Shown here: positions 904-37,349 of the stretch, piece after piece
How positions within the stretch are numbered: position 1 is the stretch's first letter
Layout of the letters: every line of letters begins with the position of its first letter
Assembly: GCA_011053135.1 (NCBI GenBank)
Contig: DRLG01000303.1
Coordinates: 1 to 44,471, forward strand
Length of the DNA: 44,471 bases
Reading direction: 5' to 3'
Source: Chromatiales bacterium
GTDB lineage: Bacteria; Pseudomonadota; Gammaproteobacteria; SZUA-140
Translations under genes and position numbers: made by a program
The notes under the pieces: model-generated
What the model was told of the DNA's origin: nothing
Database searches by the model: none
Seen by the model: the letters and a program-made list of their open reading frames with translations, nothing else

Positions 904-1191
904 TTAGCTGATCAAAACAAGTCGTTTATGCTGCTCAAGAAAACGGTCTCGCTCTGTCTGATCGATAAGCGCATCAGTTTTGTCAGGGATGATGGTTCTT
1001 GAAATCTGGATGCCAACATTACAGGTTTTGCACCAGACGATTTTCCAGCCGAACTCAGAATCTTCAAAACCGAAGTACTGATAATCGAGTCCTGTTGCCC
1101 CACAACAGAGACATGTGCACGTTGCCAGGTCATCATCATTAATCGGCAGGTGCTTTATCCAGTCAAGATAACTGTGCGTTGTCACATTCAT
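904..1191 (-). CDS. Small Cys-rich (zinc-ribbon-like) protein; candidate immunity or accessory partner of the upstream giant toxin
   Basis: 95-aa ORF. Its ATG (1191-1189) overlaps the TGA (1190-1188) of the 3199-aa gene as ATGA, indicating translational coupling. Cys clusters CTCLCCG and WCKTCN lie about 24 residues apart. No family recognised. Confidence 0.55.
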   Translation of the reverse strand: MNVTTHSYLDWIKHLPINDDDLATCTCLCCGATGLDYQYFGFEDSEFGWKIVWCKTCNVGIQISRTIIPDKTDALIDQTERDRFLEQHKRLVLIS

Positions 1192-4100
1192 TCAAATCTC
1201 ATCAGGCGCCCGGACCTATTCTGTAAATAGTATTTCCAGAAACTCTCTTCAATACCGTGGGCAGCAATTTCATTTAAATTCAACTGTTCGATCATTCTAT
1301 CACCGTACGTATTGGGGTGACCGAAAATTTCGATCTGCATCACATGAGTGCGTTCATGGCCCAGTGTCTTAATGAGATCCTCCAGGTTGGTAAAGGCATC
1401 GGGATAGAGATCAATCATGCCATTTGGGTGAGTGTAACCAAAGATATTTTTACCAAGCAGTTCGGGATCTCTTACGATTCTAACTTTTAATCCTTCCAGC
1501 CCTATACCACCTTCAAGCGCAGCACGTAAGACAAAGCGTTTCTGCATCGGCACTTTTAGTTCCGTATAGATGCCAGTATTGGCTTCACGCCTGAACAATC
1601 CGGTTGTAGTACTATCAACGATAATACTTGCTACGCTTTCCATCAATGTCTTTAAATTTTTCGCCTCAATCGGATGAGAGATACGCGACCCTTCAATTAA
1701 CAGATCGGCTATTTCATTGTCACTCAGTTTTAGTCTTCTTGCGTGCGTAATCAGATCAATGGTTTCGGCCTGATCATATTGAAGTCGATAGTGTGCTTTA
1801 TCCAGCGATGAAATTTGACCCTGAATATCCTGTGCAAGATCGGTGGTCGTGGTCTTGATCACTGAATGACGGTTCAGATCGTTCAGATCGTAACGGAAAT
1901 TACTTTTATCTGCACCCGTCGCAGCGCTAATGTCGCCAGCTGTACCACTACGGTCTTTAGCCTGTATCACAACACCAGCCACGGGTGGATGACCATTTTG
2001 AAGCGCATCAATGATCATAGTGCCGATACCGGTATCATCCCCTCGCATGATCATTTGTGCTGCGGTTCTTGCCACCCATTCCGCGCTCATCTGCGCACCC
2101 TTGGTACGCGTTTTCTGCGTGGTGGCACCTGGCCCTTTCGCTTCGACAATCATGATTTCAGAAACCTTACCGTCAGGCCCGAAACGCACCCACACCTGGT
2201 CAAAGCCAATGCCCTGCTCGAAACCACTATGCAGGTAAAACCCCTTGAAACGCTCATCGCTATTCATGGCACGCGTGGCGGCAATCTCCCCAACGGTTTC
2301 GGTGACTTTCTGACGCAGGCCACTGGTCATTTCATTAATCAATGCCTTGCGCGCCGCCGCGTCGCTGGGATACCTTGCGTGTGCAAGCTGTTCTGCGGCA
2401 TCGATCATACGCTGATATTCAATCCGTTGACGTACTAAGTTTTCCAGATGCACTTCTGGTGTTTCACGACCCATTGCGGCACGATTTTCTGCGAGGATTG
2501 AATCAAAATCTTTTTCACGCTGAGCGATGGCCTCTTCACTGAACCCCAGCCGCGCCATCTCTCTTTTAACTTCCTCATTGAACTTAGGCCTGCCATCTAC
2601 CTCGACGATTTTTTGCCGCATTTCCTGCATGATGTGGCGCAGAGTATCGAGGCTGTTAACGCCTGTGCCTCTACGCAGCCCGCTCTTGATGATATCACCA
2701 AGTAAATACCGGGCTTCATCGCCGTGGTTTCTACCACTTTCTTTGACTCTGGCAGAAAACCAGTCAGTGCCGGTGATGTAAGTAAACCACGGTTCAAGGT
2801 CGGCCAGTGCGGCGGTCTGTTTCTCGCGCATCTCATCAGTGGCCGTCCTGAGTGTATCCTTCGTGACATCTTTAAGCATTGTGGCAAAGTCACTATATTT
2901 TTCCCTGAAATCTGGCCATTCTTTGAGTTTATCGCGCAAGTGAAGTTGAAAAGCATCCCCACCGGTAAGCGAACCGCCCTCACTAAGCGATGCAGTAAAA
3001 CGTTCAAGTGCATCTGCTGCCGATTTACTCTTTTCCAGTAATCGGGAAGCCGCGCGAATATCCAGTGCGTGTGCCAGTGAATCCTTACCGCTAATCAGGC
3101 CATCGACAATATGATTAACTACCTTGCGATGTGCAGCCGAACTGGGCAGTTCTGCCAGTGCAGAGAGTAAATTGTGCGTGCGATTGAAGAGGTCAACACG
3201 TTGATCTACATCTCCACTACTGGCGATACGAATAAGACCCGCGATGGCTGCGAAACTATCGCTGTTATCGAGCTTAAGAGCATCAAAGGTAGAACGCATT
3301 TCACCCATCAGGTTAATCAGTGATTGCCGCCCTTCGCTGCCGATACTATCCATCAGGCGCGCGAAATCACTAGCCTGTTCTGCTCCAGCCCTCTCGAGTA
3401 GTTGATTGATGCCAGTGGCTACATCGAGGTGATGGCCTCTCAGGGTGAGCACCGCTGCAACGAATTGTGCGGCACTGGTCACATCGGGTGCGCTGCGTAC
3501 AGTGACACCCAGTAGCGAGATGAGTTCGGTGAAATCACGTCTGGCGACCAACTCACCCAGTCGTTGAGTACGCTGATCTGCTGGCAGCACATCAGCCACT
3601 TGATTGAGCTGATCGATCATGCCCGCAACCCCTTCCGCCGTATCATGGCTACGCAACACCTTGCGCATATCGGCAGGTGACAACTCAAGTGATGCCAGAC
3701 GATTGAGCTGTTCCACATCGATACTATCGATGAGTTTACGAGTTGCGGTGGCTTGCGTGCCGCCTGGGGTTAAATCACTCACCATTTCAGCGAGCAACTC
3801 CTCGCGGGTTTTCTGCACAGGTGGTGGCCCGGTGGCTGGCTCGCCTTTACTAAACAGCCGCGCCGGTTGATCCAGCCACTGTGGCCGCGCCAACAGGCCT
3901 GCTTCGATCTGCAGACGCTGCATCGGCCCAATTGATGCCACCTCGGCATGCCGACGTTGCAGATTGCTCAGGGTGGCCTGCGCGAGCGCTAACTCACTAC
4001 GCAGTTGCGCCTGTTCCGCCGGGTCGCTACTGCGACGCAACTGTTCGGCGAGCCCGTCTATCATACGATCATGGGCATCGATTTCGATATCGATCTTATT

Positions 4101-7100
4101 TCGGTACAGCGCCATCTGCTGTGCGAGAGGTAGCTCATCCCAGCGCTGTAAATCGCTTTCACGGAGTGCGCCGAGGCGCTCGCTCCAGCGAGGGTCTTTG
4201 CTCTGCAGGGCGTGAATCCCTTCCTCACGTAACACACGCGGACTAGCCCCTTCACGCATCACAATGACCGGTTCACCCTGCAGGATTAATGTCACCGCAT
4301 TGCCACTGGACGAGCGGGTAAAAGCTTCAAAGTCACCGGGGCGCATCACCAGTATTGGCACGTCTGAAAGTTGGGCGCGTTGCTCAGCAGGCACTGCCGC
4401 AAGCATCTCACGACGCATCTGTGCCGATTCATCATCTGTGGGACGAATCGGCGCACCCTGCTGTACCGCTTCATCAATGGCGCGACAAAACGTATCAAGA
4501 TCAAGGTCGGGGTTCTCACGCAGCGCTGCCTCTTCCAGCCGCACGCGTTCACCGGGCGAGATGGTTCCTTCCATCTGACGCAGATGCAGATCGACCAATG
4601 AAGCCTCCGGCAACACCGACAGTGTACCGCGCAGATGCTCCGGCACATTACTCATCTGCTGCTGACGTTTATGCCGCGCCTGATCTCGCGCCACTGCATG
4701 TTCCGTTTTTACTTTAGCCACTGCGGAGGCGAGCATGCCATCAAACTGGGCACGTGTGAGTTCCGGGTTACGTTGCTGCGCTTCGCGGAACAGTGCCTCC
4801 TGCTCATGTGCAGTGCCCATTGATTCCCGGTCGAGTAGCTTCTTTATCTGCTTGAGCGATTCAGCAGGTAGACCGGCAAAGACCTTACGACCATCTGGCG
4901 ACAGTGCCGCCATCACTTCACTATGGCGCTGTTGCGTCTGAATCTTTTTAAGTGCCTGGGCCTGATGAGAGGTTGCCGTTGCATCGGCCAGGCTGCGTAA
5001 AAAGGCGAATTCGCTAAGCTCCGGTTTCTCAAGTCTGGCCTGACGGAACAGTGCATCAGCCGTAGCGGAGTCAAACTCACCTCGCGCAATCATTTCACTG
5101 GCGCGACGTAGATCGGCTTCGGTCAGATATTCCATCCCTTCAATACGGACGTCATCCATGACATTACGTAATTCAGGATCCATTCCGGCAGCGAGCTGCT
5201 GGCGAATGCGCGCCTGTTGCGCCGTGTCGGGCGCATCGGCTTCATCGGCAGGATGTAAACTGGCAATCGCCGCTTCCATTTCACGCATCAGTGCGCGGCC
5301 ATCCAGGTCGGGCACGCTATCGTTCAGGTCACGCAGGAATTTACTACGATCGCCCTGGCTGCCCAGGTCACCGGCATCGATCATGCTTACTATATTTCGT
5401 AGCGTGTTGAGGTCATAACTCGACGCCTGCTCACGCAGACCTTGTGGCAGGCGGACGAGTAGTTCACGGCCAGCATCGATCTCGGCGCGAATTTTCTCTG
5501 GCCCATCATCATAGTTCATCACACCGGCCGAGATCGCAGCAAGACGCAGTGCGCGCTGGTCTGACGGACTCATCGGTTCACCGCTACGGGCAACGTCTAA
5601 CAACTGTCGGTAACGCGCCTTATTCTGGCTGGTGGCCCCTGCGCGCAGTGTGCCGGAGACCATATCGCGCAGCCCCGCCTGTCCGATCTGTTTCAATGCG
5701 TCGCCAAATTTTCCTTCAAACTTTCCGGTGGCGTAGTCGGTGATGACACCCGCGGTTTCACCGACGGCTGAACCGAACAGTTCAGCGATACTTTCCTGAA
5801 AGATTTCACTACCGTTGGGGCCGAGCGCGCTGCCGAGTTTCTGCATGCGGCTGAAGTCGCTCGGACCGAGATCACCGGGGCTCATCGAACGGCCAAGCTT
5901 GCTGGTGAGTCCTTCGGATACGCCCGCCGTTACGGCTGCTACCGCCGCACCTTTCACCGCTCCATTGAGCACCCGTTCGAGGCCACGATCCAGCCCGTCC
6001 TGCCACACTTCATCCTGCAGTGCGATCTGAGCACCGCTGCTAATTGCACTCACGAAGGCTTCACGCGCCACCGCTGAACCGATCGAACCGAGGCTCCCTT
6101 TTAATGCCTCGCCAATCCCCGCGAGTGCGCCTGACTTACCCAGTCCGCCACCCAATGCGCCCCCGAATCCTGCTGTAGCCGCTTCAATCGCAGTCGTTGC
6201 AACATCGGTGGCCGCCTCTTCCCAGCCGTAACGTTCACCACGCATCCCCGCCTTCACTGCAATGGTGGCGGCTCCGGCGATTACAGCGGTAATAATCCCG
6301 GCCGCGACGATATTGACACCGGGAATCAACATCAATGCCACCGAAGCCACCAGTGCCAGTACGGTAATACCGGTGGTAAGCATTTTTTCCTGGCGGTCGA
6401 TTTCATTACGATAGGATTCGGCAGCGAGGCTGACGCTCTGGGTGTAGTGCTGAAGCTGCGACGTATTACCTAAAAAGCTACCATCTGTACTAAAGGCCAG
6501 TGCCTGAACGACAGGGTCGATAGAGCCGTCAGGGTTAAAAATAGCACCGGGGTTTCGCTCATATGCAGCAATAGCATCGGGGTTTCCCTGACGCGCCGCT
6601 TCGGCGCGGGCGGCATCAAGAATGGTCTGTGCCAGACGATCTCGTCGGCCATCCAGGTTCTGTTGCTCTGGCGTACCGCGCATACTGCTACGCGCGAGGA
6701 AACCAGCACCACGCACCCGCTCCTGGTTGTAATGCAAACCGGCATACTGCACATGGTCAAGATCTGTTTCGCGGTTACCGCGGGAAAGGCGCTCCAGTTC
6801 AAAAGCCAGATCGCCCGATACCTCCGGGGAACGTGTCGCAAACCAGGCGAGAGGACTGAGCGCCATTAGCCCATAATCGCTGGCACCCCAACTGCGGCGC
6901 TGAATCCCCAGCATCTCCTCCATGTTTTCACCGCCATTTTCCACTGCCCACTGTGCATTGGCGGCATCAATCTCCGCACGCGAGCGATCGCCATAGGCGC
7001 GACGCAACAAAGCCTCATGGGTGCCGGCACCTTCGGTAGCGAGTTGCACGCTCGCCACCAGACTGGCGCGACCACTGGTGATCATCTCCTGACCATAACG

Positions 7101-10100
7101 TGCATGGCTTGGGCGATTCCCCACATAATCATCTTCCCGCGCGAACAGACCACCAACCTGGTCAGCCATCCAGCGCTCCGCCGCAGCGGGATCGGGATCA
7201 TTCGCTATCTCCTTCGGCGCACCCAGACGTCGCGCCATCATCTGCATACGCACACGATGCTTGCCACGTTCCTCGTCTAAAAGGCGCTGATAACGCGAGC
7301 GTTCCCGAGGGTTTCGCGCTTCGCGTACCTGACGCTCAAGCGTCGCGAGCTGTCGATTTTCAAACGCATCACTGAGACGGGTTTGCGAGGTTTCCGAAAG
7401 GTCATCAAAAATCCCGAGGGTGCTGTCACCCTGTGCACGACGGAATTCAAATACACCACGCGAGGCGCGTGCTTCATTGCTTTCAGGGCCATACCTGACA
7501 AGGTCTCTAATGTACTGGCTGGCATCATCAGACATCTCAACCCGTTCGATACGTGCACTGCCCCACCCCTGTATGGCGGATAGATGTGGCGATGTCGCAT
7601 AGCGCGTCATCGCGGCCTGTGCATCCTCGGGCGAAAATGCACTCGCCGCACGACGGCGCGGATCGGTTAACGAGGCAAACTCACTCTGCACCCGCTGGGT
7701 GCTGCGGTCGATCACCTCGCGCGGGAGATAAGCCGATTCAACCGCTAGTTCCTGCTGCAACACGCCGCGCATATTCGCCATCACAGTAACGCGGGCTTCG
7801 TCCGAACGGCGCTGGGCAGACTGAGCACTGAAGATCCAGCCCCACTCACCCTGACCGCGAGCCTTATCGAGCGATTCACGAGTGCGTGCAGCGACGGCAC
7901 GTTCACGGTTACGATCCAGGTATGCAGTCGCAATCGCGCCCTGATGTTCGTTTAATCCGCTGATCAGATTGGTGCGTGTAGTTTCAATAAGCCGAGGATT
8001 AAAAGCTGCAACGGCATCACGTTCGGCCTGGCTTAGTCCCTGCAGTGCGGATTCACGTGCGGCGCGATTATAATCGAACCATCCAGTGGAGTAATTGGCT
8101 ATTGACATACGGGCATAGCCACGCACCCGCGCACTGGTACTCAGTAGATTCAGCGCATGCCATTTTTCCGGGCTACCCAGTTCTGAGCGAATCCGTGGGC
8201 GCAGCAGACTGGGACTGGGGTAGATTGTGTTGAACACATCTTCCAGTCCAAGCACCCCAGGCCACATCAGGTTACCCAGTTTCTCGATAACGACATTTTC
8301 ATCGCCATCGCTACAATAGAGATAGACGCCGGCCGCAATCGGACTTAACAGTGCAAGCCCGCCGGCAGTAGCCAGTGATTGCCCCGGCATCGCATTGTCG
8401 ATCGCCGAAGCGCGGCGTTCGAGATCTGCACGGCTATCCATCATCGGTTTGGTCAGCGAACCTTTGTCACCGACTTTTTCCATCTCTTTGACAAAATTTT
8501 CCAGCGCGCCATACTGGCTTTGTGCGGCAGCGCTGATTGCACCATTTAAAAAACCGACCGCGATCGCATCGACCTGTTGTAGCCCTTCATCGTCCAGTTT
8601 ATCTCTAGACTCGATAATCCCCTCCGCCATTCTTGTCGCGTATTCCTGCGCTGCGGTAATCCCCTGGATGGCACCTGCACTCATTTCGCCGGTCATCTGC
8701 GAGGAGAACATCGACATATCGAAGCTGGTGCGTGTGACCACATCCTCCATACTGTTGACGCTGTCGCGCCCGGCCTTACTAATGGAGTTGATCTGATCGC
8801 GTTTGATCTTATCCATTTTTTCCAGCGTCATATCGGCCTGCTGCTGCGCCGCTTTTTCATGCTGCTGTTGCAGTTTAAAGGCGCTATCGCGTGCGACGAT
8901 CAGTTTGGGAAGGAGATTACGGGAGTCAAGAAATTGTTCTGCTGGCAGCAGCGCATCCAGACGGCGTACCAGGTCACGATAGGCTTCGGCCATTTGTGCT
9001 GCGGAATTGTTTAACGCGGTTTCCGCCGAACTCGCCTGCGACCGTAACCCCTGTGCGGTCTTATTGCCACTCTTGCGAATATTTTTAGTGAGGGTATTGC
9101 GCATATCAAGGTCGGCGTACTCTTTCGCCAGCTTACCCTTGTTCTGAATTATGCGACGTGCACTACGCACCGCCGCCTCTGTTTCTGTCAGCTGTTGGTC
9201 GCTTTTATTGCTGACCTCATCAACTGACTGACTCTCATCCTGTTCATGATGTTGCGATACCGGTGTCGTTAATGACAGCACCAGTGTTGTAAACTGGGCC
9301 TTGTTTGCATCTGAAGAAAGGCGCGTGGCATGTTCACCCGCATTTGTGACGAGTCTTGTCTGCTCCTGTCCAGCCATTCCCTCCAGCACGGGTGAAGCAC
9401 GTGACAGGAGATAGGTTTTAACATTACTGCTTTTCTCGGAAATAATCCCCGACTGTATATCCATAAAGTGGGTTAATCTCTTCTCGGCTTTCGACATTAC
9501 ACGATAGGATGGAGTCGACTCCTGGTTGCCACTCTGTGCAGCTGCGCCACTCTCGCCTCCACCAGCAGGCTGCTCACTGTTCTGGTTGCCACCGCCGGCT
9601 GTGCTCTGAGGGTTAGGGGGCTGAGGTAACTGCGCAGCAATGCCGGATGTAGGGATATCATTAATATAGCCAGCCGCCTGCGGGATTTTTTCATTAAAGC
9701 GCGCCTCTGCTATTTCGGCTGCCTGTCGAATCTCCTCTGACCCTTCCATGAGATTCGCGGTGATCTCCAGCATAATGCGATCACGGCTTGCCTGCAGTTC
9801 TTCGCCAGTTTTTATATTTTGTTCGGTAATGTGCGCCTGCTCTTTGGCCAATGAAAGGTCGATATCGCGCATCGATTGATCCACTGCATCATTAATCTGT
9901 TTAACCGCTGCTGCTGTGACACCCTGTACTTCGACCGCCATCTCCTCGATCGAAATCCGTGTGTTCATACCGAGGTTACCGATATTAAAAAGCATGCGGC
10001 GTTGAGCATCGCGCGCCGCCTGCGCAGTGCGCTGCGCACTCTGTCGCACCAGTGCATGGTGATATTCCGGTGGTGATCCGGTGCGCTTGAGAATTTCATC

Positions 10101-29981: not shown

Positions 29982-30149
29982 TTAATCGAACTTCAGGCGA
30001 TCTTGTCGCTGCTGAATTAATGCCAGTGTTTGCGCCAGCGCGGACTCAGCTTCAGCCAGCGGCAGTTGCAGCGGCGCCGGCTCTGACTCAGCGAACTCAG
30101 TGACGCCACTTTCAACTTCTGCAATAACTTCGTTAATCAGTACAGGCAT
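29982..30149 (-). CDS. Small 55-aa ORF (Afp6/Pvc6-sized) not present in the supplied ORF track
   Basis: Translated by hand on the minus strand: MPVLINEVIAEVESGVTEFAESEPAPLQLPLAEAESALAQTLALIQQRQDRLKFD, then TAA at 29982-29984. It fills the only gap between the tube-initiator and gpD-like genes. Purine-rich AGAGAGG lies upstream of the ATG. Confidence 0.4.
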   Translation of the reverse strand: MPVLINEVIAEVESGVTEFAESEPAPLQLPLAEAESALAQTLALIQQRQDRLKFD

Positions 30150-30169: not shown

Positions 30170-31285
30170 TTAATCAAAACCAACACTCGCTTTCGCGTTG
30201 AGATTAATCTTCCCGCTACCCGTCTGATCCATCGACAACTGACTTTTTAATTTCAGCGGCGAAACACTACTCTCATTACGCAGTAGTAGACTGCCATTCG
30301 CAATGCTACTGGCGGTTAAACCCACGCCAGCGGGGCCAGTGCTAAATGCACCCTCTATTCCAGTACCCAAACTGCCGGAAGCACCAAATTTAAAGGCAGG
30401 TGGTGTAAAGCTTGCACTTATACTCGGCTGGACCAAGGCACCCATGCCGACTGAGGCTGACAGTGAAGATGAGACATCCGCTGTTGCTGAGAATCCACCG
30501 CTGAGGCCAGCATTCACTTTAACCGAGGCACTGGCAGACACTTTGGGAATAGCAAGCATGGCGGCTGAGGGTAAACGCGGGTTTTCTACGCCGTTATACA
30601 TAGAGGTGTCACGCCAGTTACCTCTCTTGTCACCACTACCACCGGGTACTGGCGAAGTCTCCTGGCTAGACTTGCTCCCACCACCCTTGTTACTGCTGTT
30701 GTTTCCCGTAGAGCTGAGCGTCGGTGTTTCCCGTGTCGCCTTTGCAACCGTTCGATTACGAAACTGGTAACGGTCTTCACTCAGTTTTAGCGATACAGTT
30801 GCGCGTAACGGATGACCTTCGGGCGAAAAAAAATCCAGCGTCTCATCAAAGCTTTCAACTAACCCAAGAAATTCAAATGCGCCCCATTGAAAAAGGCAAC
30901 GACTCGGGGCTTTGAGCCGATTACCAGAGGGAACCGGTTTAATAAACTTATCGCCAATACGTTTTGTTATCAGACGGACGTCCGTACCTACTTCAAATGC
31001 ATTCCGTTCACGCCCTTCATTTTGCGCCCTTTTTTTATACTTTTTTGCAGCTTCATCATCAATGTAAGTCGTATCGAAAATCAATTCTACGGTTAAGCTG
31101 GATGAACTTTTATCAACAAATTGTGATGAGCGACTGTTACCAGCGCGCTGATTTTCCTTCAGCGTGTTGGACAGGCTAACTTTTAGCGTGGTGGGGTTAA
31201 ACTGTACATCAACAGCCTTCGACAAGTCAGGGTTGTCATTATTCCCACTAACAGGAATGAGCTTGGCTCGTTCAGGATTAATCAT
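30170..31285 (-). CDS. CIS tube-initiator-like protein (Afp7 N-terminal type) with a Ser/Gly-rich C-terminus instead of LysM
   Basis: N-terminus ERAKLIPV...AVDVQFNPTTLKVSLSN...SSLTVELIFDTTYID...GTDVRLITKRI fits the FNP-motif tube-like domain seen at the N-terminus of Afp7/LysM proteins. The C-terminal ~170 aa are S/G/A-rich with no LysM signature. Confidence 0.6.
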   Translation of the reverse strand: MINPERAKLIPVSGNNDNPDLSKAVDVQFNPTTLKVSLSNTLKENQRAGNSRSSQFVDKSSSSLTVELIFDTTYIDDEAAKKYKKRAQNEGRERNAFEVGTDVRLITKRIGDKFIKPVPSGNRLKAPSRCLFQWGAFEFLGLVESFDETLDFFSPEGHPLRATVSLKLSEDRYQFRNRTVAKATRETPTLSSTGNNSSNKGGGSKSSQETSPVPGGSGDKRGNWRDTSMYNGVENPRLPSAAMLAIPKVSASASVKVNAGLSGGFSATADVSSSLSASVGMGALVQPSISASFTPPAFKFGASGSLGTGIEGAFSTGPAGVGLTASSIANGSLLLRNESSVSPLKLKSQLSMDQTGSGKINLNAKASVGFD

Positions 31286-31296
31286 CTCTCACCTCA

Positions 31297-31797
31297 TCAT
31301 CTTTTTACTGGTCGCTCTAACTCAAGCCCTTCATGCACCAGATGTAACTCTTCAATGGCCACTTGATTAGCGGTGGATGATAAATCTGGGCCTTTAAATT
31401 TTGTCGGTAATACCCCAAAGAGTTTCCACACCATAACGGGGTTCTCAGAACTTGACTGGACCCCGTGTTTACCCTTTGTCACCGAGCTATCTGGGTTCCC
31501 AAGCACGACAATTTCACCACTTAAGCGATAAGCATAATTTGATTCACGTGTCGTAATATCGAACCAGGACCACAGGTCATTCATTGTCGTCACGCCGCGC
31601 TTTAATATGATTGGCGCAAATTTCGTGGTACCACTGCGCTGAATCTCACCCCAGTTACGCCCCCCTTCGACAATCACTTTGGGTTCCATGGTTAACTCAA
31701 AACCGGTGACCTCGCTAAAATAACCACCACATAGCAGCTGGCTACGGTCGCCACTAAATAGACTGACTTTGAAACGAAACGGGACAAACTCAGACAT
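31297..31797 (-). CDS. Tail tube protein 2 (T4 gp19 family, Afp5-like)
   Basis: FRFKVSLF...GGYFSEVTGFELTMEPKVIVEGGRN...APIILKRGV is the gp19/tube signature. GGAGGTG lies 4 nt upstream of the ATG. Confidence 0.8.
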   Translation of the reverse strand: MSEFVPFRFKVSLFSGDRSQLLCGGYFSEVTGFELTMEPKVIVEGGRNWGEIQRSGTTKFAPIILKRGVTTMNDLWSWFDITTRESNYAYRLSGEIVVLGNPDSSVTKGKHGVQSSSENPVMVWKLFGVLPTKFKGPDLSSTANQVAIEELHLVHEGLELERPVKR

Positions 31798-33277
31798 TTT
31801 TCACCTCCGCCTGCCACTCCCCATTTTGATTGGCGAAGGTAAGGTAGAGCCGATCAATTGGAAACGCAGGTGCGACCATAATTTCAAACAGCATCGCACC
31901 GGGCTGAGGCTGAGATTCGGTAATCACATAGGCATCATCAGGTAATGCGCCGCGCAAAGCACCTTGCTTATGCAACCGACGAAAAAAATCATGCAGCATT
32001 AAGCGCGGGCGTGGATCACGGTAATCGACGTTAAAAACCAGTACTTCACCCAATGTTCGTAGCTGACGACGCAAAAAACCGAGAAAGCGCATCACTTCAG
32101 CCGAACGAAATCCATTGTAGCGATCTATATCACGTCTCTCTTTGTAGTCTGCAGGTGGCAAAGCAGGGACTACCAGGCGCTCGTCATCCAGGCTCACTTT
32201 ACCTGAACGTATTTGCACCATGCCAATACCAGGTTGTTCACGCAGGTGTAATGATTGTGCGAGCGGCGTTACTGGATAAGGCACAGCGTCTGTAACCATT
32301 GTGCGTGCCGCCATCGAGTGCCACGGCCCTTTTTCCCACGCCACCGCGGCTTGTTGCCCGGCGACGAGTCCGACCGGACTACGCAACAAAAAACGAGGGC
32401 CGCGTAAGTAAGGGTACAGAAACTGAATATGACGTAGTGTATGGCCACTACTACCATCTCTAAGATTTTCCACCGTCAATATTGCCGCAGGGTCAATAAC
32501 CGGACTGCCTTGTTCGCCGGAATAACTCAGCGGAAGACTAAACAGACATTGCATATCTGGACGGTAACGAACGATAGCGCGTAAAATTCCCTTCAGTAGT
32601 TCTGCACTCGGTCTCGGCTGCGGCATAGCTGGCAGTTCGGTCGGGTATCGACGTTCCCGGTGATCATCATCCAGATCCTGACTACACGGCATAAAACGCG
32701 GATCAGGGTTTTCCAGGCGAACACGAGGAATATCACTCATACGCGGCGGAATCTGCAAACGTTCCAGATCGGGCATGGTCACCACCGCAACACTTGGGAT
32801 AACCAGAATACAAGCCAGCCCCCGCAGGGTTTCAGTATCATGAATCACCGTATTATCAGCAGGTAAAAATGCCGCTTGTAGCTCCGCTTCAGGAATTTGC
32901 ACTAACCAGAGCTTTTCGCCACCATTAGCAAAAAAATCATCTACCGACTGCGCTAGCCAGGCCTGCGCGCCAGCGAGCAAACTGACATACTCTGTTTTTG
33001 CGACTGCAGCATCTGGGAAAATATCGTGAAACTCAGCGCTGGAATAGAGCGGGATTGGCAAGTGGTATAGCTGACTCAATGTGCCGTTAATCAGCGCATC
33101 AACGGCAACACCAAAACCCACTGAACGTATCTCATCCAGAGCACCTGGTAAGGCAAGCAGGCGCTCTACCCGTACCCGCCCGGGGCAATGCCCTAGCATG
33201 GCAACTTCGAGTGCAGCCTCACGCCGACGTAATGGGCGTGGCGTTAAGGCGATGCGCGATCCAGCAAGCAGCTCCAT
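31790..33277 (-). CDS. Divergent second sheath-family protein (Afp3/4-like), lacking the canonical N-terminal PGVY motif
   Basis: VDDFFANGGEKLWLVQI parallels AAKSFFDGGGKQLFVSRV in the 725-aa sheath. SPVGLVAGQQAAVAWEKGPWHSMAA parallels PPSGFIAGVYANTDVQRGVHKPPAN. Confidence 0.55.
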   Translation of the reverse strand: MELLAGSRIALTPRPLRRREAALEVAMLGHCPGRVRVERLLALPGALDEIRSVGFGVAVDALINGTLSQLYHLPIPLYSSAEFHDIFPDAAVAKTEYVSLLAGAQAWLAQSVDDFFANGGEKLWLVQIPEAELQAAFLPADNTVIHDTETLRGLACILVIPSVAVVTMPDLERLQIPPRMSDIPRVRLENPDPRFMPCSQDLDDDHRERRYPTELPAMPQPRPSAELLKGILRAIVRYRPDMQCLFSLPLSYSGEQGSPVIDPAAILTVENLRDGSSGHTLRHIQFLYPYLRGPRFLLRSPVGLVAGQQAAVAWEKGPWHSMAARTMVTDAVPYPVTPLAQSLHLREQPGIGMVQIRSGKVSLDDERLVVPALPPADYKERRDIDRYNGFRSAEVMRFLGFLRRQLRTLGEVLVFNVDYRDPRPRLMLHDFFRRLHKQGALRGALPDDAYVITESQPQPGAMLFEIMVAPAFPIDRLYLTFANQNGEWQAEVKNV

Positions 33278-33289
33278 CAGTGACGACTC

Positions 33290-33751
33290 TTAACTCTGCT
33301 CGATATGTTCAACCGATAATACGAGCTCTTCCATCGCAACATCACTGCCTCCCTTGGCGGTGAGTGTCGGGCCAGTCCATTTGATCGGCATCGCGTTAAT
33401 CAATTTCCATGTCACAACCGCAGAAGGATCGGTGGCGTTTTCCCGTTTGAGCTTAACTTCAACATTACGCTTTGCGGTCACATCACCCTCACGGATTTGA
33501 TCTAACCAGTTGTAAATATTTTCAGCACCGATCACGCCACGTTTAAGTGTGACATCTCCCGCCTTACTTACTGCTGGGATTTTAGTTACATAATTTGCCG
33601 GCGCATTTCCATTACGGTATTCCGCGATAGTAATTTCAGCGTTCAATCCGGAGACCTCAGAAAACCCACCCTGTACTTCACCTTCACTACCATCACCAAG
33701 ATTGACTAGATAATTAAAAACGCTATAGGGTGTTTCTCGAAATTCAGCCAT
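33290..33751 (-). CDS. Tail tube protein 1 (T4 gp19 family, Afp1-like)
   Basis: 153 aa. FNYLVNLGDG...GGFSEVSGLNAEITIAEYRNGN...VTLKRGV is the gp19-type tube signature. It lies immediately downstream of the sheath gene. Confidence 0.85.
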   Translation of the reverse strand: MAEFRETPYSVFNYLVNLGDGSEGEVQGGFSEVSGLNAEITIAEYRNGNAPANYVTKIPAVSKAGDVTLKRGVIGAENIYNWLDQIREGDVTAKRNVEVKLKRENATDPSAVVTWKLINAMPIKWTGPTLTAKGGSDVAMEELVLSVEHIEQS

Positions 33752-33785
33752 GTTTAATTCCTCCTGAAAAGATCACTAACAACGT

Positions 33786-35963
33786 TTAACTATCTGCGGT
33801 TTTCTGGCCAATACGGAAAATAACAAACTCCGCCGGTTTCAATGCAGCCACACCAACTTCACACACCAGACGGCCATTGTCTAAATCATTTTGTGTCATG
33901 GTACTGCGGTCGCAACGAACAAAATATGCAGTTTTTGCCGAACCCAGCAAGCGTCCGTTGAACCATTCGTTATAAAGAAAGTCTTCAACTGTGGTTTTCA
34001 CATTGGCCCACAATCGCTCACCATTGGGTTCAAATACGATCCACTGCGTGGATTTCTCGATCGATCGCTCCAGGTACAAAAAGTAACGCCGAACATTGAC
34101 ATATTTCCATTCAGGGTCACTCGCCAGGGTGCGACCACCCCAAACACGATGTCCACGACCAGGGAATGAGCGCAGGCAATTTATGCCGTTAGGGTTTAAC
34201 AACTCCTGTTGAAAACGATTAATATCCTGTGCAAATCGCAGCGCACCGATAACAGGTTCGTTAGCAGGTGGTTTATGGACGCCGCGTTGCACATCGGTAT
34301 TGGCGTAAACACCCGCAATGAATCCCGACGGTGGTGCTGTGATAGTGTCGTTGATACCACGCGGATCACTAATCACCACCCAGGGGTAGTACAGGGCCAG
34401 GCGGGAGTCGTCAAAGTTAGATCGGAATTCACGAATTTCTGATAACGACATGCTTTCTCGTGAATCCACTATACCGACACGGTAACGCATCTTACGGCAA
34501 TGTTTCTGCATTTCTGCCACAATTGCCTGGTGATTTGCGACATCGGCAGCCGCTGCAGGTGTCATAACAATTGAAATGTCGTCAATGTCTTCCAGGGCAG
34601 CAAAACCGGTACTACCATTGACTTCGTCAGTTACACCGCCGTAATGGATGGCTGCCGGCACATTACCATCACTACCGCCAGTCAGGCTAATAAGATAGCG
34701 TGGGCCATCGACTGAAATACCAACGGGGTTCAGTGCCTCGCTGTCAAACATATTATACAGTGCGGCGACCACTTGCTCGCCCGTCACGCCATTCGCAAGG
34801 GTACAACTGACTGGACTGGAGAGTTGATCACTGCGTTTATCGGGCACAGCGGCCATGACGTTATGCAAGCTGTTATCTGCATCGGGCGCTGACGATATAT
34901 TACCGTAGCTGTACACAATCGACCCACTACTGCCCCCTGAGCGCACAGAGATATCAAAATTTCTTTGTATCATCATCGCGCGCACATTGCTCGGTGCAGC
35001 GGCAAGTGCTGCGAGTGAAAAAGTAGCCGGTAAGACAATGCCAGCATTGAGGCCGCTACCATCCAGCGTAAACTCGGTACCAGCTTCATTCAAGGTACCG
35101 CGAAGCGTTGTTAACGTGCCCCAGTCAACACCGGTATAAGCACTCAGGTCGGTAACGCTCGTGAGACTGAGCAACGCCGATGTACCATCGGCCAATGCAC
35201 CACTGGTGGGCCGTTTAGCAGTGACCTGTGTGTACTTAATCGTGGTACTGACACCCGCGACCAGACCTGCGCTCATCAGCACCCCATCATCGCCATCTGC
35301 CGCACCGTCAAGACGCAGCTGGGTGCCCGTGAGTACAACATCATCGTCCGTGGTTATTTCACAGAGATTATCGACGATGACGAAATGATCCCCTTCACGA
35401 CGAACCACCGCTTTAATATCAATTGGGAAACGACTATCAGGCGCCCGAATATCAATATCAGCGGTGCGCACAGCATTGCTCAACCCAGTGGCCTCCAGAA
35501 AGATGACTTCGCCTTCGGCTGGCACAGAAGTTTCCACTGACTTCAATAAATTTTCGCTGTCTCGCCAGTCAAGCTCCAGCGTGTAGTCACCCATAACTCC
35601 GGGAAAGCGACTATTAAACGTAACCCTGTTATTGATGTCAGCGATACTGGAATAACCATCTGTGGGACTGACGTAGTTTGCTACGCGTGACACAAAAAGC
35701 TGCTTACCACCCCCATCGAAAAAAGATTTTGCTGCGATTGCCGTATGATTCAGTACGCTCGTACCAGCCAGAGTAAGATTATTAATATCGCCAAAAATAC
35801 GGGTAAATTCCGCAAAACTGGTCACCACTTCGGGTTTTCCTCGAAGCGGCCCGAAACGTGTTGGACCGACAATTGCAGCGACACTGGTTCCGACGCCTTC
35901 AATTGATTTGGCGCGAAAGCTCACTTCCTCCACAAACACACCCGGTGCTAAATATTCAGGCAT
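33786..35963 (-). CDS. Contractile tail sheath protein (Afp2-like)
   Basis: 725 aa. N-terminus MPEYLAPGVFVEEVSF, internal PPSGFIAGVYANTDVQRGVHKPPAN, and C-terminal NGINCLRSFPGRGHRVWGGRTL are the three classic sheath motifs. Confidence 0.9.
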   Translation of the reverse strand: MPEYLAPGVFVEEVSFRAKSIEGVGTSVAAIVGPTRFGPLRGKPEVVTSFAEFTRIFGDINNLTLAGTSVLNHTAIAAKSFFDGGGKQLFVSRVANYVSPTDGYSSIADINNRVTFNSRFPGVMGDYTLELDWRDSENLLKSVETSVPAEGEVIFLEATGLSNAVRTADIDIRAPDSRFPIDIKAVVRREGDHFVIVDNLCEITTDDDVVLTGTQLRLDGAADGDDGVLMSAGLVAGVSTTIKYTQVTAKRPTSGALADGTSALLSLTSVTDLSAYTGVDWGTLTTLRGTLNEAGTEFTLDGSGLNAGIVLPATFSLAALAAAPSNVRAMMIQRNFDISVRSGGSSGSIVYSYGNISSAPDADNSLHNVMAAVPDKRSDQLSSPVSCTLANGVTGEQVVAALYNMFDSEALNPVGISVDGPRYLISLTGGSDGNVPAAIHYGGVTDEVNGSTGFAALEDIDDISIVMTPAAAADVANHQAIVAEMQKHCRKMRYRVGIVDSRESMSLSEIREFRSNFDDSRLALYYPWVVISDPRGINDTITAPPSGFIAGVYANTDVQRGVHKPPANEPVIGALRFAQDINRFQQELLNPNGINCLRSFPGRGHRVWGGRTLASDPEWKYVNVRRYFLYLERSIEKSTQWIVFEPNGERLWANVKTTVEDFLYNEWFNGRLLGSAKTAYFVRCDRSTMTQNDLDNGRLVCEVGVAALKPAEFVIFRIGQKTADS

Positions 35964-35985
35964 AGTCTTCTCCTTTCAGTTTTTC

Positions 35986-36765
35986 TCAACTAGGTTGCAC
36001 AGCTAAATGATCCTTATTCATTGATCGGATCAGTTTAATCTCACCGGGTACGACTGTTAAACCGATGGGGTTAGAAAAAGTGTTATCGTTATCGAGCTCT
36101 CCAAGCTTCATCGACAACAAGTCAGCAGGATCAAGCGGCGTGTCCGCATCTGCTGTACTGAGTGCCGCAACACGAAGTTCAGCATTGTAAAAATCAACTC
36201 CTTCCGGTAATGGCGGCAAGCGAGTCATGGACAAACCAAAATCACCCTTTGCATCTGCCTGAGCACGAAACGTTAACGTGCCGCTGAGCCCAGTGGCAAC
36301 CTCGAGTGTCAACAATGCCCAGGGCACTGAGTTGCTATTAGTAGAAAACCGCAGCGTGCCAGTAAGACCACCACTGACACCAAAACGGGTACCATACGGC
36401 GATGGATAAAGCTCTACAACCTGCCGCCCAAGGTTACCGGCTGTAAGGCTAAACGTGCGTGGGTTGTAACGCCCATTAAGATCCAGCACGCTACCCGCTA
36501 ACGGATAAGTAGCGCTTACAGGAAATGCCAAATCAGCTTCACTTGCAATACCGTTAATCATTGACTCAGTGGGACGCCGCCATAAAGCTGTCTTTCCAGC
36601 AGTATGCATAAGTTGCAAATTAGTAGGGCGCACTGAAAGTGAAAGTTCAATAGCATAGGGCAGACGCATCATATCTACCTGGTTCTCAGCACTGGTTCCG
36701 TCCAGCCAGTAGATCACATCACTTGCGTGTAGAATGTTGGTTTCAAGTATCTTTAGCGTGTTCAC
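35986..36765 (-). CDS. Hypothetical 259-aa protein between terminator and sheath (possible prealbumin/CarboxypepD_reg-like beta-sandwich)
   Basis: GTG start forms GTGA with the upstream stop. GTLRFSTNSNSVPWALLTLEVATGLSGTLTFRAQADAKGDFGLSMTRLPP loosely fits the G.v.d..g.P...A.v.l......tD..G.F.l..lp pattern. Weak assignment. Confidence 0.55.
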   Translation of the reverse strand: MNTLKILETNILHASDVIYWLDGTSAENQVDMMRLPYAIELSLSVRPTNLQLMHTAGKTALWRRPTESMINGIASEADLAFPVSATYPLAGSVLDLNGRYNPRTFSLTAGNLGRQVVELYPSPYGTRFGVSGGLTGTLRFSTNSNSVPWALLTLEVATGLSGTLTFRAQADAKGDFGLSMTRLPPLPEGVDFYNAELRVAALSTADADTPLDPADLLSMKLGELDNDNTFSNPIGLTVVPGEIKLIRSMNKDHLAVQPS

Positions 36766-37349
36766 AACGCGCCCCCAGGGAACACGCGTGTCACTACCGC
36801 TGGCCCCTCAGTACGCTGAGGATTCAGACGTAAGCGAATGGTACGCGCAACATACGGCACTGAACTCGTATAGGGTGATTCAAACACTTCCCAGATGCGC
36901 ATTAAATCTTCCGTAGACATCTCATCCGGAGTGATGTTTAGAACTTCTGTTTGGCCCCATTCATCATCGATATCCAGCACATGGGATACATCAAGCTGAC
37001 TAGCATTGGCAAGCTCAACCATTGCCCAGCTCATTAAATCTGCTTCGATGGTGGCACTATTCGCATTAGCGATCAGCAGGAAATGAAGATTAACCGGGAG
37101 CTCTGGATGACGACCATTTTCACTGGCACCCTGCTGAGGGAAAAAGCGTGCGCGGCCATGGGGATCAATAGTCATGCGATGCAAATATATACCAAGTATA
37201 TTTCCATTGAGCTTACTGGCAATATCCGAACTACCAAGTAGCTTTGCTTGCGCATTGGTTGGTTCGTTACTGAGGTCTGTTGGCAAGCGGCGTTTAAAAA
37301 ACTCCTCTAATGCCAACAATGCTCCTTGCACTCCCTTATACGAGGCCAC
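36762..37349 (-). CDS. DUF4255 tail terminator/cap protein (Afp16/Pvc16/Cis16-like); first gene of the operon
   Basis: 195 aa. ILGIYLHRMTIDPHGR...LPVNLHFLLIANA...EADLMSWAMVEL fits the DUF4255 pattern (l.lyLyrv..n...rn...ppl.L.LhYLlta....e..lL..am..l). GTG start at 37349 is preceded by AGGAGG with a 4-nt spacer. Confidence 0.65.
   Translation of the reverse strand: MASYKGVQGALLALEEFFKRRLPTDLSNEPTNAQAKLLGSSDIASKLNGNILGIYLHRMTIDPHGRARFFPQQGASENGRHPELPVNLHFLLIANANSATIEADLMSWAMVELANASQLDVSHVLDIDDEWGQTEVLNITPDEMSTEDLMRIWEVFESPYTSSVPYVARTIRLRLNPQRTEGPAVVTRVFPGGAL

Follow-up and report, generated by a model that had tools for sequence, protein, structure and literature searches.

Among contractile injection systems (CIS), eCIS subtype IIb has been defined by gene content (Chen 2019, PMC6899500): Afp6 is present, VgrG is split (gp27/gp5), there is a single Afp11, PAAR and Afp14 are absent, and subtype-specific unknowns complete the set. 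The subtype is already catalogued, and neither experiment nor imaging on any IIb system was found in the literature searched. Other described systems bear on single genes: the AlgoCIS cap, of 197 aa, goes with an adaptor of 284 aa (PMC8894135), CisA of the Streptomyces CISSc is a bitopic membrane protein needed for firing yet not a particle component, and a 2026 eCIS fibre catalogue lists Hahella GCA_002260525.1 and Marinobacter GCA_004792665.1 as eBAP3 fibre loci.

The locus described here comes from a Chromatiales (Gammaproteobacteria) bacterium of hydrothermal vent origin and lies in a window (the whole stretch of DNA that was analysed) of 44,471 nucleotides. Twenty-two minus-strand ORFs, all co-directional and tightly packed, span positions 37349 to 904 (Table 1). 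The cluster is the complete gene set of a tail-only CIS of the Afp/PVC-related superfamily, with cap, sheath, tube, tube initiators, split VgrG spike, gp25/J/P2-I baseplate and AAA+ ATPase. An initial reading from the sequence alone (the sequence-only reading) had called this parts list non-canonical; feature by feature it corresponds to the published IIb definition, so the architecture is not new. We place the cluster in subtype IIb of lineage II, an assignment made by the published gene-content criteria rather than by a tree including dbeCIS members. The cap-first gene order and the affiliation with a non-Afp lineage, both proposed earlier, were upheld. We consider two parts of the cluster worth study.

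Table 1. Genes of the cluster, with window positions and the basis of each assignment.
Gene	Length (aa)	Assignment	Positions	Strand	Basis
g1	195	Tail terminator/cap, Cis16/Afp16 N-domain type	36762..37349	-	Pfam Pvc16_N/DUF4255 E 1e-29
g2	259	Conserved two-domain beta-sandwich, candidate cap adaptor	35986..36765	-	105 homologs, AF2 model
g3	725	Contractile sheath	33786..35963	-	Pfam Phage_sheath_1 and 1C; PDB 8bky, 8bl4, 9ezm
g4	153	Inner tube	33290..33751	-	Pfam Phage_T4_gp19 E 1.5e-30
g5	495	Divergent sheath paralog	31790..33277	-	Family profile A2 vs PDB CIS sheaths
g6	166	Second tube-fold protein, tube initiator layer, Cis5-like	31297..31797	-	Pfam Phage_T4_gp19 E 1.7e-26
g7	371	Cis7-type tube initiator	30170..31285	-	Pfam CIS_tube E 2.4e-22, aa 5-172
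g8	55	Small conserved protein, Afp6/Cis6 (spike plug) position	29982..30149	-	Position and conservation
g9	348	gp27/gpD-like spike hub, N-terminal half of split VgrG	28911..29957	-	Pfam Phage_GPD E 4.6e-13
g10	213-216	gp5/gpV-like spike, C-terminal half of split VgrG	28273..28923	-	Pfam Phage_base_V E 1.6e-16
g11	556	Conserved tail-anchored membrane protein in PAAR slot	26594..28264	-	Hydrophobicity, AF2 model, synteny
g12	130	gp25/TssE-like sheath initiator	26198..26590	-	Pfam GPW_gp25 E 9e-23
g13	724	Baseplate_J wedge (gp6/Afp11/TssF-like)	23996..26170	-	Pfam Baseplate_J E 1.8e-10
g14	794	Tail_P2_I wedge and fibre adaptor (gp7/Afp12/TssG-like)	21595..23979	-	Pfam Tail_P2_I E 4.9e-6
g15	295	Fibre/receptor-binding candidate	20642-21529	-	NCBIfam CIS13_fam N-terminal match
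g16	564	Fibre/receptor-binding candidate	18945-20639	-	NCBIfam CIS13_fam N-terminal match
g17	1179	Fibre/receptor-binding candidate	15384-18923	-	NCBIfam CIS13_fam N-terminal match
g18	550	Conserved two-domain protein, directly upstream of ATPase	13728..15380	-	Alignment A6, synteny
g19	663	Afp15/Cis15-type AAA+ ATPase	11740..13731	-	Pfam AAA E 2.4e-27, aa 449-573
g20	317	Protein co-occurring with giant toxin	10790..11743	-	Locus co-occurrence
g21	3199	Giant polymorphic toxin, candidate cargo	1188..10787	-	Sequence, TM peaks, CTD homology
g22	95	Cys4 protein, candidate cognate immunity protein	904..1191	-	Downstream-ORF homology

Structural genes and their conservation

The ORF calls agree with the packing described earlier, namely 22 co-directional genes with gaps of at most 65 nt and stop-start overlaps: 4-nt overlaps occur at 5 junctions, and the largest gap (65 nt, at g14/g15) contains a 41-nt tandem duplication. 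A tRNA-Leu gene adjoins the cluster, and the contig ends 32 bp past it. Pfam confirmed the parts named in the sequence-only reading (DUF4255, sheath, two gp19 tubes, gpD, gpV, gp25, Baseplate_J and the gpI/Afp12 wedge). Nineteen genome loci were collected with g13 as the anchor. The g3-g18 block is syntenic in ∼12 genomes (L002-L013) from Marinobacter, Hahella, Permianibacter and Desulfobulbus, and the g14-g19 order is kept in 40+ metagenome contigs; g1 and g2 are conserved upstream in L102 and L103, where the g1 counterparts occupy the same position at 74-75% identity.

The closest solved sheaths to g3 are that of the Streptomyces CIS (8bky, E 1e-97) and 9ezm (E 1e-92), the latter presumably the sheath of the haloarchaeal T6SS-like CIS; g3 is distant from the pyocin (E 4e-12) and T4 (E 1e-6) sheaths. 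The flanks are ordinary chromosomal genes in this window and in relatives, no head genes were found within the cluster, and relatives on long contigs have housekeeping-gene flanks without capsid, portal, terminase, integrase or lysis cassette. The locus is thus a CIS rather than a prophage, R-type tailocin or canonical T6SS, as first proposed. All structural genes do have phage-tail ancestry, and the adjoining tRNA gene near the contig end would suit a defective prophage tail module or an R-type tailocin, in which the giant ORF would serve as tape measure and the AAA protein would be unrelated. We regard this as highly improbable, because, beyond the sheath and the flanks, the DUF4255 cap, the Afp15-type AAA+ ATPase (no relatives of which were found on viral contigs) and the post-ATPase effector slot are eCIS hallmarks, and the giant g21 follows the ATPase rather than lying between tube and hub and carries a predicted polymorphic toxin tip with a candidate immunity gene.

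The large genes previously listed as unknown can now be described: the 259-aa protein is a beta-sandwich, the 556-aa protein is a membrane protein without a fold match, and those of 295, 564 and 1179 aa are fibre candidates. The first, g2, bears the NCBI name 'carboxypeptidase regulatory-like domain', and its AF2 model is all-beta (pLDDT 89.5), with weak pilin/Ig-like Foldseek matches at most, Alg16B not being among them; by position and size alone it is possibly an Alg16B-like cap adaptor. The proposed second sheath paralog, g5, has no Pfam match and was borne out by its family profile, which matches the solved CIS sheaths 7b5h (E 9e-9), Afp2 (E 5e-7) and AlgoCIS (E 6e-7), as well as Afp3; PHROG adds a tail sheath match (E 6e-4), and an Afp3/4-like role seems likely. 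The tube initiator g7 carries a QFNPTT motif and ends in a Ser/Gly/Ala-rich tail where LysM would stand; neither LysM, there or elsewhere, nor PAAR nor an adenovirus-type fibre gave a Pfam match among the cluster proteins. The small g8 is annotated in both ENA and NCBI records, and L002, L004-L007, L012 and L013 have it at the corresponding place (33-85% identity); by size and position alone it is a candidate Afp6/Cis6.

Fibres had been thought absent, which holds for the adenovirus type and not for fibres in general. The N-termini of g15-g17 match CIS13_fam (E 1e-8, 7e-7 and 4.5e-3, respectively) and are 28-30% identical to one another, and none of the three has a TM segment. To judge by these similarities, they are candidates for three paralogous fibres with a Cis13/eBAP-type baseplate-anchor N-terminus. 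The two assemblies catalogued as eBAP3 loci are those holding relatives L101 and L103.

The membrane protein g11 is a core gene, strictly syntenic among relatives and situated within the baseplate block, with 273 homologs and 1,256 family representatives; its slot is occupied by PAAR proteins (spike tip) in relatives L018 and L015. In its AF2 model (pLDDT 78) residues 5-450 are folded, 451-514 form a disordered linker of ∼65 aa, and 515-546 form a helix, in accordance with a hydrophobic peak at aa 520; this C-terminal TM helix is highly conserved. The fold has no Foldseek match in PDB or BFVD and no PDB profile match. It may help the particle to dock at a membrane or to fire at one, or may serve in release.

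ATPase neighbours and the cargo module

The gene g18 is immediately upstream of the ATPase in all of >40 syntenic loci and has no PDB profile match; we suggest that it may be an assembly or loading partner. Alignment A6 shows two folded domains with a hypervariable linker between them. The tape-measure candidate of the sequence-only reading could not be supported, in g18 or elsewhere in the cluster. The ATPase g19 had been read as a double AAA protein, which is partly correct: Walker A (aa 452) and Walker B (aa 506) form the sole canonical module, and a second, possibly degenerate P-loop at aa ∼225-235 was noted by eye. Homologs of g20 (L021-23, L025, L028, L031, L054 and L065) all occur with a g21 homolog, the sole exception being a 1.9-kb contig (L067) with g20 alone; g20 has no Pfam, NCBIfam or PHROG match and may serve as an adaptor or chaperone.

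The module downstream of the ATPase is variable. In other relatives this slot holds proteins of eCIS_core (ex-DUF4157) effector type; here it holds g21, and neither g20 nor g21 has an eCIS_core domain. GC drops to 0.455-0.48 over window positions 1-3000, at the 3' end of the cluster. The giant protein g21 consists of an acidic disordered N-terminus, a conserved body of ∼2,950 aa in which aa ∼1470-1515 form a TM hairpin, and an HExxH domain at aa ∼3033-3199. The last is, by sequence, a predicted swappable, metallopeptidase-like toxin tip: it shares 56% identity with the C-terminal end of a Citrobacter Hcp-toxin fusion and 52% with the C-terminal tip of an Rhs protein, and the L031 homolog stops at residue ∼2963 and lacks it. 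The ORFs directly 3' of these Hcp-toxin and Rhs toxin homologs are 47% and 26% identical to g22, respectively, and share its CxxC...CxxC arrangement, so that the combination of HExxH domain and small downstream Cys4 gene is met again behind both T6SS Hcp and Rhs toxins; g22 is therefore a candidate cognate immunity protein of g21.

Possible released and membrane-attached modes of action

With modest confidence we favour a lineage II, subtype IIb CIS whose released particles inject the g21 toxin into neighbouring bacteria while g22 protects the producer. In the cytoplasm, the baseplate (g9-g14 with fibres g15-g17) would nucleate the growth of tube and sheath, and the distal end would be capped by g1, probably with g2. 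The ATPase, perhaps with g18 and g20, would aid particle assembly and load g21 into the tube lumen via its acidic disordered N-terminus. After release, the three alternative fibre types may bind target cells, and sheath contraction would push spike and tube into the neighbouring bacterium, where the TM hairpin might help membrane passage and the metallopeptidase-like domain would do damage, with g22 guarding producer and kin. That particles reach the medium is assumed from analogy. Against it stand the conserved membrane protein within the baseplate block, the cytoplasmic or membrane-bound nature of the closest characterised relatives by sheath (CISSc and the haloarchaeal T6SS), and the window's content, in which, as the sequence-only reading had it, there is no lysis cassette and no other lysis or release gene.

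These points lead to a possible, though rather less probable, alternative in which g11, as a topological analogue of T6SS TssL, tethers the particle to the producer's inner membrane and the toxin is fired outward on contact, as in the haloarchaeal T6SS and T6SS-iv. Besides the missing lysis genes, the strict synteny of g11, its cytoplasmic domain, flexible linker and conserved TM helix, and its position in the PAAR slot argue for tethering, as do the membrane attachment of every studied non-extracellular relative via a cluster-encoded membrane protein (CisA, Hbor_38620, Cis13-TM), the reported resemblance of eBAP3 fibres and Tail_P2_I proteins to TssK and TssG, and a toxin domain and immunity gene of the type that T6SS uses. 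However, three large, soluble, divergent fibre-type proteins better suit a free particle that recognises its targets, no trans-envelope complex for crossing peptidoglycan and outer membrane is present, the AAA+ ATPase is of Afp15 rather than ClpV type, and contact of g11 with spike or baseplate is putative.

The sheath's top match to CISSc, and the precedent of CisA, which is required for firing from outside the particle, would also suit a cytoplasmic system that fires inside the stressed producer, with g11 in the CisA role, and brings about regulated cell death without attack on others. We consider this improbable. The toxin domain is one that interbacterial T6SS/Rhs toxins share, and with it comes a dedicated candidate immunity gene, both of which point to other cells as the target; CISSc has no fibres, whereas three candidates occur here; and CisA consists of an unstructured N-terminus, then a TM segment and a periplasmic domain, whereas in g11 the folded domain is cytoplasmic and the TM helix is C-terminal.

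Comparison with known systems

CISSc (8bky/8bl4) resembles the cluster in having the closest solved sheath, in belonging to lineage II, and in its cap-first order and cluster-encoded bitopic membrane protein. It differs in being of subtype IId with a fused VgrG, PAAR and no fibres, in a monoderm host, and the gene for CisA, whose architecture is unlike that of g11, follows the baseplate genes rather than occupying the PAAR slot. The haloarchaeal T6SS-like CIS of Halogeometricum borinquense (clade IIa; PMC11566945) has a similar sheath, including a plasmid match to Halogeometricum, and shares the split VgrG, Cis12/Cis13-type peripheral baseplate parts, toxin-immunity pairs and a conserved cluster-linked membrane protein; unlike the cluster, it has two Afp11 copies and PAAR and lacks Cis6, and its membrane protein, with six TM helices, is found outside the core block. 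The host there is an S-layer-bearing archaeon.

AlgoCIS (Algoriphagus, clade Ib; PMC8894135) and the Anabaena tCIS (PMC8894136) also have a short single-domain cap beside a protein of ∼260-280 aa (which in AlgoCIS is the cap adaptor), a small gene of plug size, and fibre-like proteins with a Cis13-type N-terminal baseplate anchor; g10 aligns with residues ∼374-570 of their spikes, Alg8 and All3320, and with T6SS VgrGs. Both differ in a fused VgrG, PAAR, LysM on Cis7 and a Cis11 cage, and Cis13 of tCIS has a TM helix, in contrast to g15-g17. For the cargo, the Sle1/Sle2 pair of the Streptomyces lividans CIS (PMC13277306) and the DUF4157/eCIS_core-linked effectors (PMC8213781) are, like g21, large and mostly helical; they share with it a TM helical hairpin and a functional domain at the C-terminus that can be exchanged, and a small partner gene and CIS genes lie alongside. 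The likeness seen is one of layout rather than sequence; in size g21 exceeds them several-fold, and it ends in a tip of T6SS/Rhs type with a candidate immunity gene. Subtype IIb (PMC6899500), whose hosts span several phyla, also has the divergent Afp12/13 and the cap-first order in common with the cluster; gene content does not differ between them, and the cluster stands out by its cargo, an unusually large polymorphic toxin.

Gene content and subtype of the cluster

The 22 co-directional minus-strand ORFs (g1-g22, numbered from 37349 down to 904) that a sequence-only reading had described as a complete, tail-only contractile injection system (CIS) operon were recovered as such, with a maximum intergenic gap of 65 nt and a 4-nt stop-start overlap at five junctions. 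A Pfam scan of the 22 proteins bore out the parts named in that reading: genes for sheath, tube, gp25, Baseplate_J and a VgrG-type spike all matched above the gathering score and lie clustered together (see table), and the cluster holds both a DUF4255/Pvc16_N terminator (g1) and a dedicated Afp15-type AAA+ ATPase (g19). The best matches of g3 among solved sheaths are those of CIS (8bky with an E value of 1e-97, 8bl4 and 9ezm), its matches to the pyocin sheath (E 4e-12) and the T4 sheath (E 1e-6) being remote. The proposed second sheath paralog is g5 (495 aa), for which Pfam gave no match and a profile of eight orthologs matched the PDB CIS sheaths All3325 of the Anabaena tCIS (E 9e-9), Afp2, Afp3 and AlgoCIS, bearing out that proposal. 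In the AlgoCIS and tCIS spikes and in T6SS VgrGs, it is the gp5-like C-terminal half to which g10 aligned; g9 and g10 together therefore represent a split VgrG. The ATPase had been called a double-AAA protein; one canonical Walker A/B pair (residues 452 and 506) was found in g19, and residues ~225-235 resemble, by eye, a degenerate P-loop, which supports the double-AAA description in part.

Features of the window and of related loci (L numbers, in other genomes or metagenome contigs, with positions in their own coordinates); Pfam matches exceed the gathering threshold
Feature	Position (nt)	Strand	Content or Pfam match
tRNA-Leu(CAG)	33-119	+	
Spacer	120-903		non-coding, AT-rich
CIS cluster, g1-g22	37349-904	-	22 genes
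Region of lowered GC	1-3000		g21 3' end, g22, spacer
PD-(D/E)xK-like motif in g21	~2100-2250		
Tandem duplication at g15	21495-21576		41-nt repeat
Low-complexity tail of g7	30170-30730		
REP-like element	38141-38210		
REP-like element	38596-38665		
Copper-efflux region	38219-44471		
g1			Pvc16_N/DUF4255, E 1e-29
g3			Phage_sheath_1 and 1C
g4, g6			Phage_T4_gp19
g7			CIS_tube, without LysM
g9			Phage_GPD
g10			Phage_base_V
g12			GPW_gp25
g13			Baseplate_J, single copy
g14			Tail_P2_I
g19			AAA, E 2.4e-27, Walker A/B
Upstream of sheath, L101	1-1662		divergent ORF
eCIS_core slot, L026	11922-16483		
eCIS_core slot, L052	11797-16412		
eCIS_core slot, L033	11933-18795		
eCIS_core slot, L046, L047			
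Cargo-slot protein, L024	12032-20350		Annexin repeat, E 4e-11

R-type tailocins and prophage tails are marked by a tape measure between tube and hub, a lysis cassette and the lack of an AAA+ ATPase and of DUF4255, and the gene content of the cluster is opposite on every one of these marks. Canonical T6SSs (subtypes i-iii) are marked by a TssB/TssC sheath, a TssJLM membrane complex and ClpV; TssJ/L/M and ClpV families were absent from the Pfam scans of the cluster, where the single sheath is of the phage/CIS type. Taken with the sheath matches and the flanks, this content upholds the assignment to CIS rather than to a prophage, tailocin or T6SS.

Chen et al. 2019 (PMC6899500) divide CIS into subtypes Ia, Ib and IIa-IId. 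Within lineage II, IIb is the sole subtype that keeps afp6 and the sole one without afp10/PAAR; further, the gp27 and gp5 parts of its afp8 are separate ORFs, afp11 occurs once, afp12/13 are divergent, afp14 is lacking, and two to three conserved genes have no known domains (PMC6899500). The present cluster shares the absence of afp10/PAAR, the split afp8 (g9 and g10 as separate ORFs), the one Baseplate_J gene, the divergent afp12/afp13 (the Tail_P2_I protein g14, and Cis13-type N-termini on g15-g17) and the absence of afp14, no tape-measure match being found; g2, g11 and g18 are its conserved unknowns, and g8 is its candidate afp6 counterpart, by position and size. The parts list taken for non-canonical in the sequence-only reading is, point by point, the published IIb signature (for afp6, by position and size), and the architecture is therefore already catalogued, not new. 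Judged by gene content for the subtype, we regard this with high confidence as a complete CIS cluster of IIb type with polymorphic toxin cargo.

The g8 ORF is a conserved 55-aa ORF between the Cis7-type g7 and the hub, which is the Afp6/Cis6 position. In g7 itself, residues ~190-371 form a Ser/Gly/Ala-rich low-complexity tail of ~180 residues at the place where LysM stands in other systems; its length varies among relatives, which are 328-429 aa in total. The g2 protein (259 aa) is conserved beside g1 and was modeled as two beta-sandwich domains (pLDDT 89.5). AlgoCIS has a short single-domain cap, Alg16A, and a cap adaptor, Alg16B, whose size and place g2 mirrors. Neither a profile search against the PDB nor Foldseek recovered Alg16B from g2, both giving generic Ig/pilin-like matches only; on position and size alone, an Alg16B-like cap adaptor is a lead. 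The g18 protein (550 aa) is always upstream-adjacent to the ATPase and has conserved N- and C-terminal domains. As the candidate tape measure it was rejected: its two globular-looking ends are joined by a hypervariable low-complexity linker, and no PDB match was found. The giant g21 was likewise rejected for this role because it lies beyond the ATPase gene, is missing from most relatives, and has a predicted toxin tip and immunity gene. The tape measure proposed for the cluster was not found.

Flanks and distribution

The window covers nearly the whole of a metagenome contig of 44,560 bp from a hydrothermal vent (ENA ERZ940665), whose proteins NCBI lists under a Chromatiales bacterium MAG. Directly upstream of the cluster, a MerR-type regulator accompanies a cusF/cusA/cusB copper-efflux operon; these host genes appear unrelated to the CIS cluster. 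The same region encodes a YtkA domain on cusB and a DUF8199 protein, and two REP-like elements of ~50-70 nt, with an internal palindrome GTTCCCACGG...CCGTGGGAAC, lie either side of cusF. Beyond the last cluster gene, ~785 bp of non-coding DNA separates g22 from a tRNA-Leu gene, which suggests that the cluster is an island inserted beside a tRNA. A search for an att site with the tRNA 3' end gave no second copy within the window, and the AT-rich 850 bp upstream of g1 showed no sigma-70 consensus when scanned for promoters. The only large intergenic gap (65 nt) exists because of a perfect 41-nt tandem duplication, which repeats the ribosome-binding region of g15 together with its start codon and its first 11 codons and has its upstream copy out of frame; either a recent slip or an artefact of assembly may explain it.

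Capsid, portal or terminase genes contiguous with the cluster, which would make it a prophage, and genes for a T6SS membrane complex or ClpV were seen neither in the flanks within the window nor in those of its relatives; on the tRNA side this absence is read from the relatives, because the contig stops 32 bp past the tRNA. In the relatives, housekeeping genes (SAM synthetase, Tol-Pal, patatin, a transporter) flank the locus, and head, packaging, integrase and lysis genes were not seen there. That the cluster is a prophage remnant or tailocin is thus ruled out by gene content and flanks, and we give this reading almost no credence.

A scan with g13 of one genome per species returned 19 loci. 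Twelve of these (L002-L013) carry g3-g18 in the same order at 31-98% identity, as far as their contigs extend, in Gammaproteobacteria MAGs, Permianibacter, Desulfobulbus/Desulfobulbales, three cultured Marinobacter species, a betaproteobacterium, Cellvibrio and Oceanospirillaceae. When metagenomes were scanned with the ATPase g19, 80 loci were returned, and more than 40 keep the order g14-g19. In L102 and in the Hahella locus L103, the terminator g1 and g2 stand upstream of the sheath. In Marinobacter orientalis W62 (L101, SRZX01000007.1), g1 and g2 are not found there and their place is taken by a 6851-aa ORF transcribed divergently from the sheath. No match was found in E. coli genomes searched with the 5' third of the cluster, and no relatives in viral contigs scanned with g19. 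IIb systems are widespread in marine and sediment Gammaproteobacteria and in Desulfobulbales, cultured strains of Marinobacter, Hahella, Methylomonas and Thalassocella among them, and our literature search returned no paper that characterises, images or tests one.

The cargo module downstream of the ATPase

The genes g20 (317 aa) and g21 (3199 aa) directly follow the ATPase and co-occur in a subset of relatives (L021-23, L025, L028, L031, L054 and L065). In most other relatives this place is taken by a ~1,200-aa eCIS_core protein (PF13699, formerly DUF4157) and, after it, a ~320-aa TPR protein, so the position after the ATPase is a variable effector slot, as already described for eCIS in the literature. 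One of these loci, L033, encodes an additional eCIS_core-OmpA protein. In L024 the slot holds a 2772-aa protein with an Annexin repeat, unusual in bacteria, which hints at cargo directed at eukaryotes.

The N-terminus of g21 is acidic and of low complexity; its long body contains a hydrophobic hairpin at residues ~1470-1515, and it ends in a C-terminal domain of ~140-170 aa with an HExxH motif ('HERTH'). Matching domains form the C-terminal extension of a Citrobacter T6SS Hcp (T6SS_HCP) fusion (56% identity) and the C-terminal tip of an RHS/YD-shell protein (52% identity). Directly 3' of these Hcp and Rhs toxins lie ORFs of 93 and 94 aa, which in alignments share 47% and 26% identity, respectively, with g22 (95 aa) and keep the CxxC...CxxC (Cys4) pattern. 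The L031 homolog of g21 stops at about residue 2963 and lacks the HExxH domain. GC content falls from ~0.58 in mid-g21 to 0.455-0.48 across the g21 3' end, g22 and the spacer, consistent with recent gain of the toxin tip and immunity gene. The occurrence of one C-terminal domain on unrelated scaffolds, the matching downstream gene, the L031 homolog without the domain and the 3' drop in GC together mark g21 as a predicted polymorphic toxin with g22 as its putative cognate immunity gene, and suggest that the targets are other bacteria. That the tip and the putative immunity gene are shared with T6SS Hcp/Rhs toxins also shows an exchange of toxin modules between T6SS and CIS cargo, and for this giant modular toxin it points to an antibacterial role.

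By sequence, g21 had no match in the PDB, and Pfam at a lenient threshold gave none for g20, g22 or pieces of g21. A PD-(D/E)xK-like motif ('GFDQVWV...IMIVEAKG') was noticed by eye at residues ~2850-2900 of g21, before the HExxH domain, in the portion conserved with the L031 homolog; database searches gave no support for it (the 'IVEAKG' part being at residue ~2880). In its large size, hairpin, C-terminal domain and small partner g21 resembles the Streptomyces effector Sle1, a large helical cargo with a TM hairpin, an exchangeable C-terminal domain and a small partner (PMC13277306), a resemblance that does not imply homology.

Fibre candidates, the membrane protein g11 and mode of action

The N-termini of g15 (295 aa), g16 (564 aa) and g17 (1179 aa) match the NCBIfam family CIS13_fam (E values of 1e-8, 7e-7 and 4.5e-3, respectively) and are 28-30% identical to one another; g16 and g17 had no PDB match by sequence. 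In tCIS the Cis13 N-domain binds the baseplate (PMC8894136), and a 2026 eCIS fibre catalogue describes eBAP anchor domains on fibres whose genes lie downstream of Tail_P2_I, a locus having as many as four of them. In the supplement of that catalogue, eBAP3 fibres are given for Hahella GCA_002260525.1 and Marinobacter GCA_004792665.1, two assemblies that also contain relatives of the g1-g22 cluster. On these grounds g15-g17 are candidate fibre genes of a type that is not adenovirus-like. An Afp13/adenovirus-like fibre had been reported as missing, and that type is indeed absent.

PAAR had also been reported as missing, and PAAR_motif, Tox-PAAR-like and DUF4150 matched none of the 22 proteins in Pfam. 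Between the spike (g10) and gp25 (g12) genes lies g11 (556 aa), whose C-terminal segment is strongly hydrophobic and very conserved. More distant relatives without g11 encode a PAAR protein in the same slot (L018, PAAR_motif with E 4e-13; L015, Tox-PAAR-like with E 4e-32), and g11 therefore replaces PAAR in the gene order. The AlphaFold model of g11 (35-sequence alignment, pLDDT 78) is folded over residues 5-450, followed by a disordered linker (451-514) and a helix (515-546). A hidden PAAR domain was considered and rejected, as Foldseek showed no PAAR fold. No PDB match was found by sequence or profile, and Foldseek searches of the PDB and of the viral models in BFVD were empty. The family includes 273 close homologs, none of which is annotated, and clustering at 50% leaves 1,256 representatives.

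Four modes of action are described among the studied relatives in this superfamily. Afp, PVC and AlgoCIS are released particles (AlgoCIS, PMC8894135); tCIS is anchored to the thylakoid via a TM helix on Cis13 (PMC8894136); the Streptomyces system CISSc is cytoplasmic, its firing depending on the membrane protein CisA; and the haloarchaeal CIS is bound to the cytoplasmic membrane and linked to a 6-TM protein (PMC11566945). Gene content alone is therefore insufficient to establish that a system is extracellular. We lean slightly towards a released particle that would bind its targets via the three soluble fibre types. A T6SS-like machine held at the inner membrane of the producer by g11 is a serious, though less likely, alternative: every relative that is not extracellular has a cluster-encoded membrane protein, the topology of g11 is that of a tail-anchored tether, and g11 occupies the spike-tip slot. 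A suicide role like that of CISSc fits poorly with an immunity gene and fibres, and we consider it improbable.

The g11 family may decide whether these machines are released or anchored, and together with the giant toxin g21 it is the part of most interest here, the cluster architecture itself being already in published catalogues. For the engineering of programmable injectors, a system that combines three candidate fibre types with cargo exceeding 3,000 residues would be a useful chassis. As a speculation, and as a whole a doubtful one, IIb systems could, instead of being free extracellular particles, form a separate class of cell-anchored, T6SS-like antibacterial weapons of diderm bacteria, in which g11 would dock spike and baseplate to the inner membrane and the TM hairpin of g21 would aid membrane crossing. 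If so, docking by g11 would add an independent means of membrane anchoring to TssJLM of the T6SS, CisA of Streptomyces, the haloarchaeal 6-TM protein and the TM helix on Cis13.
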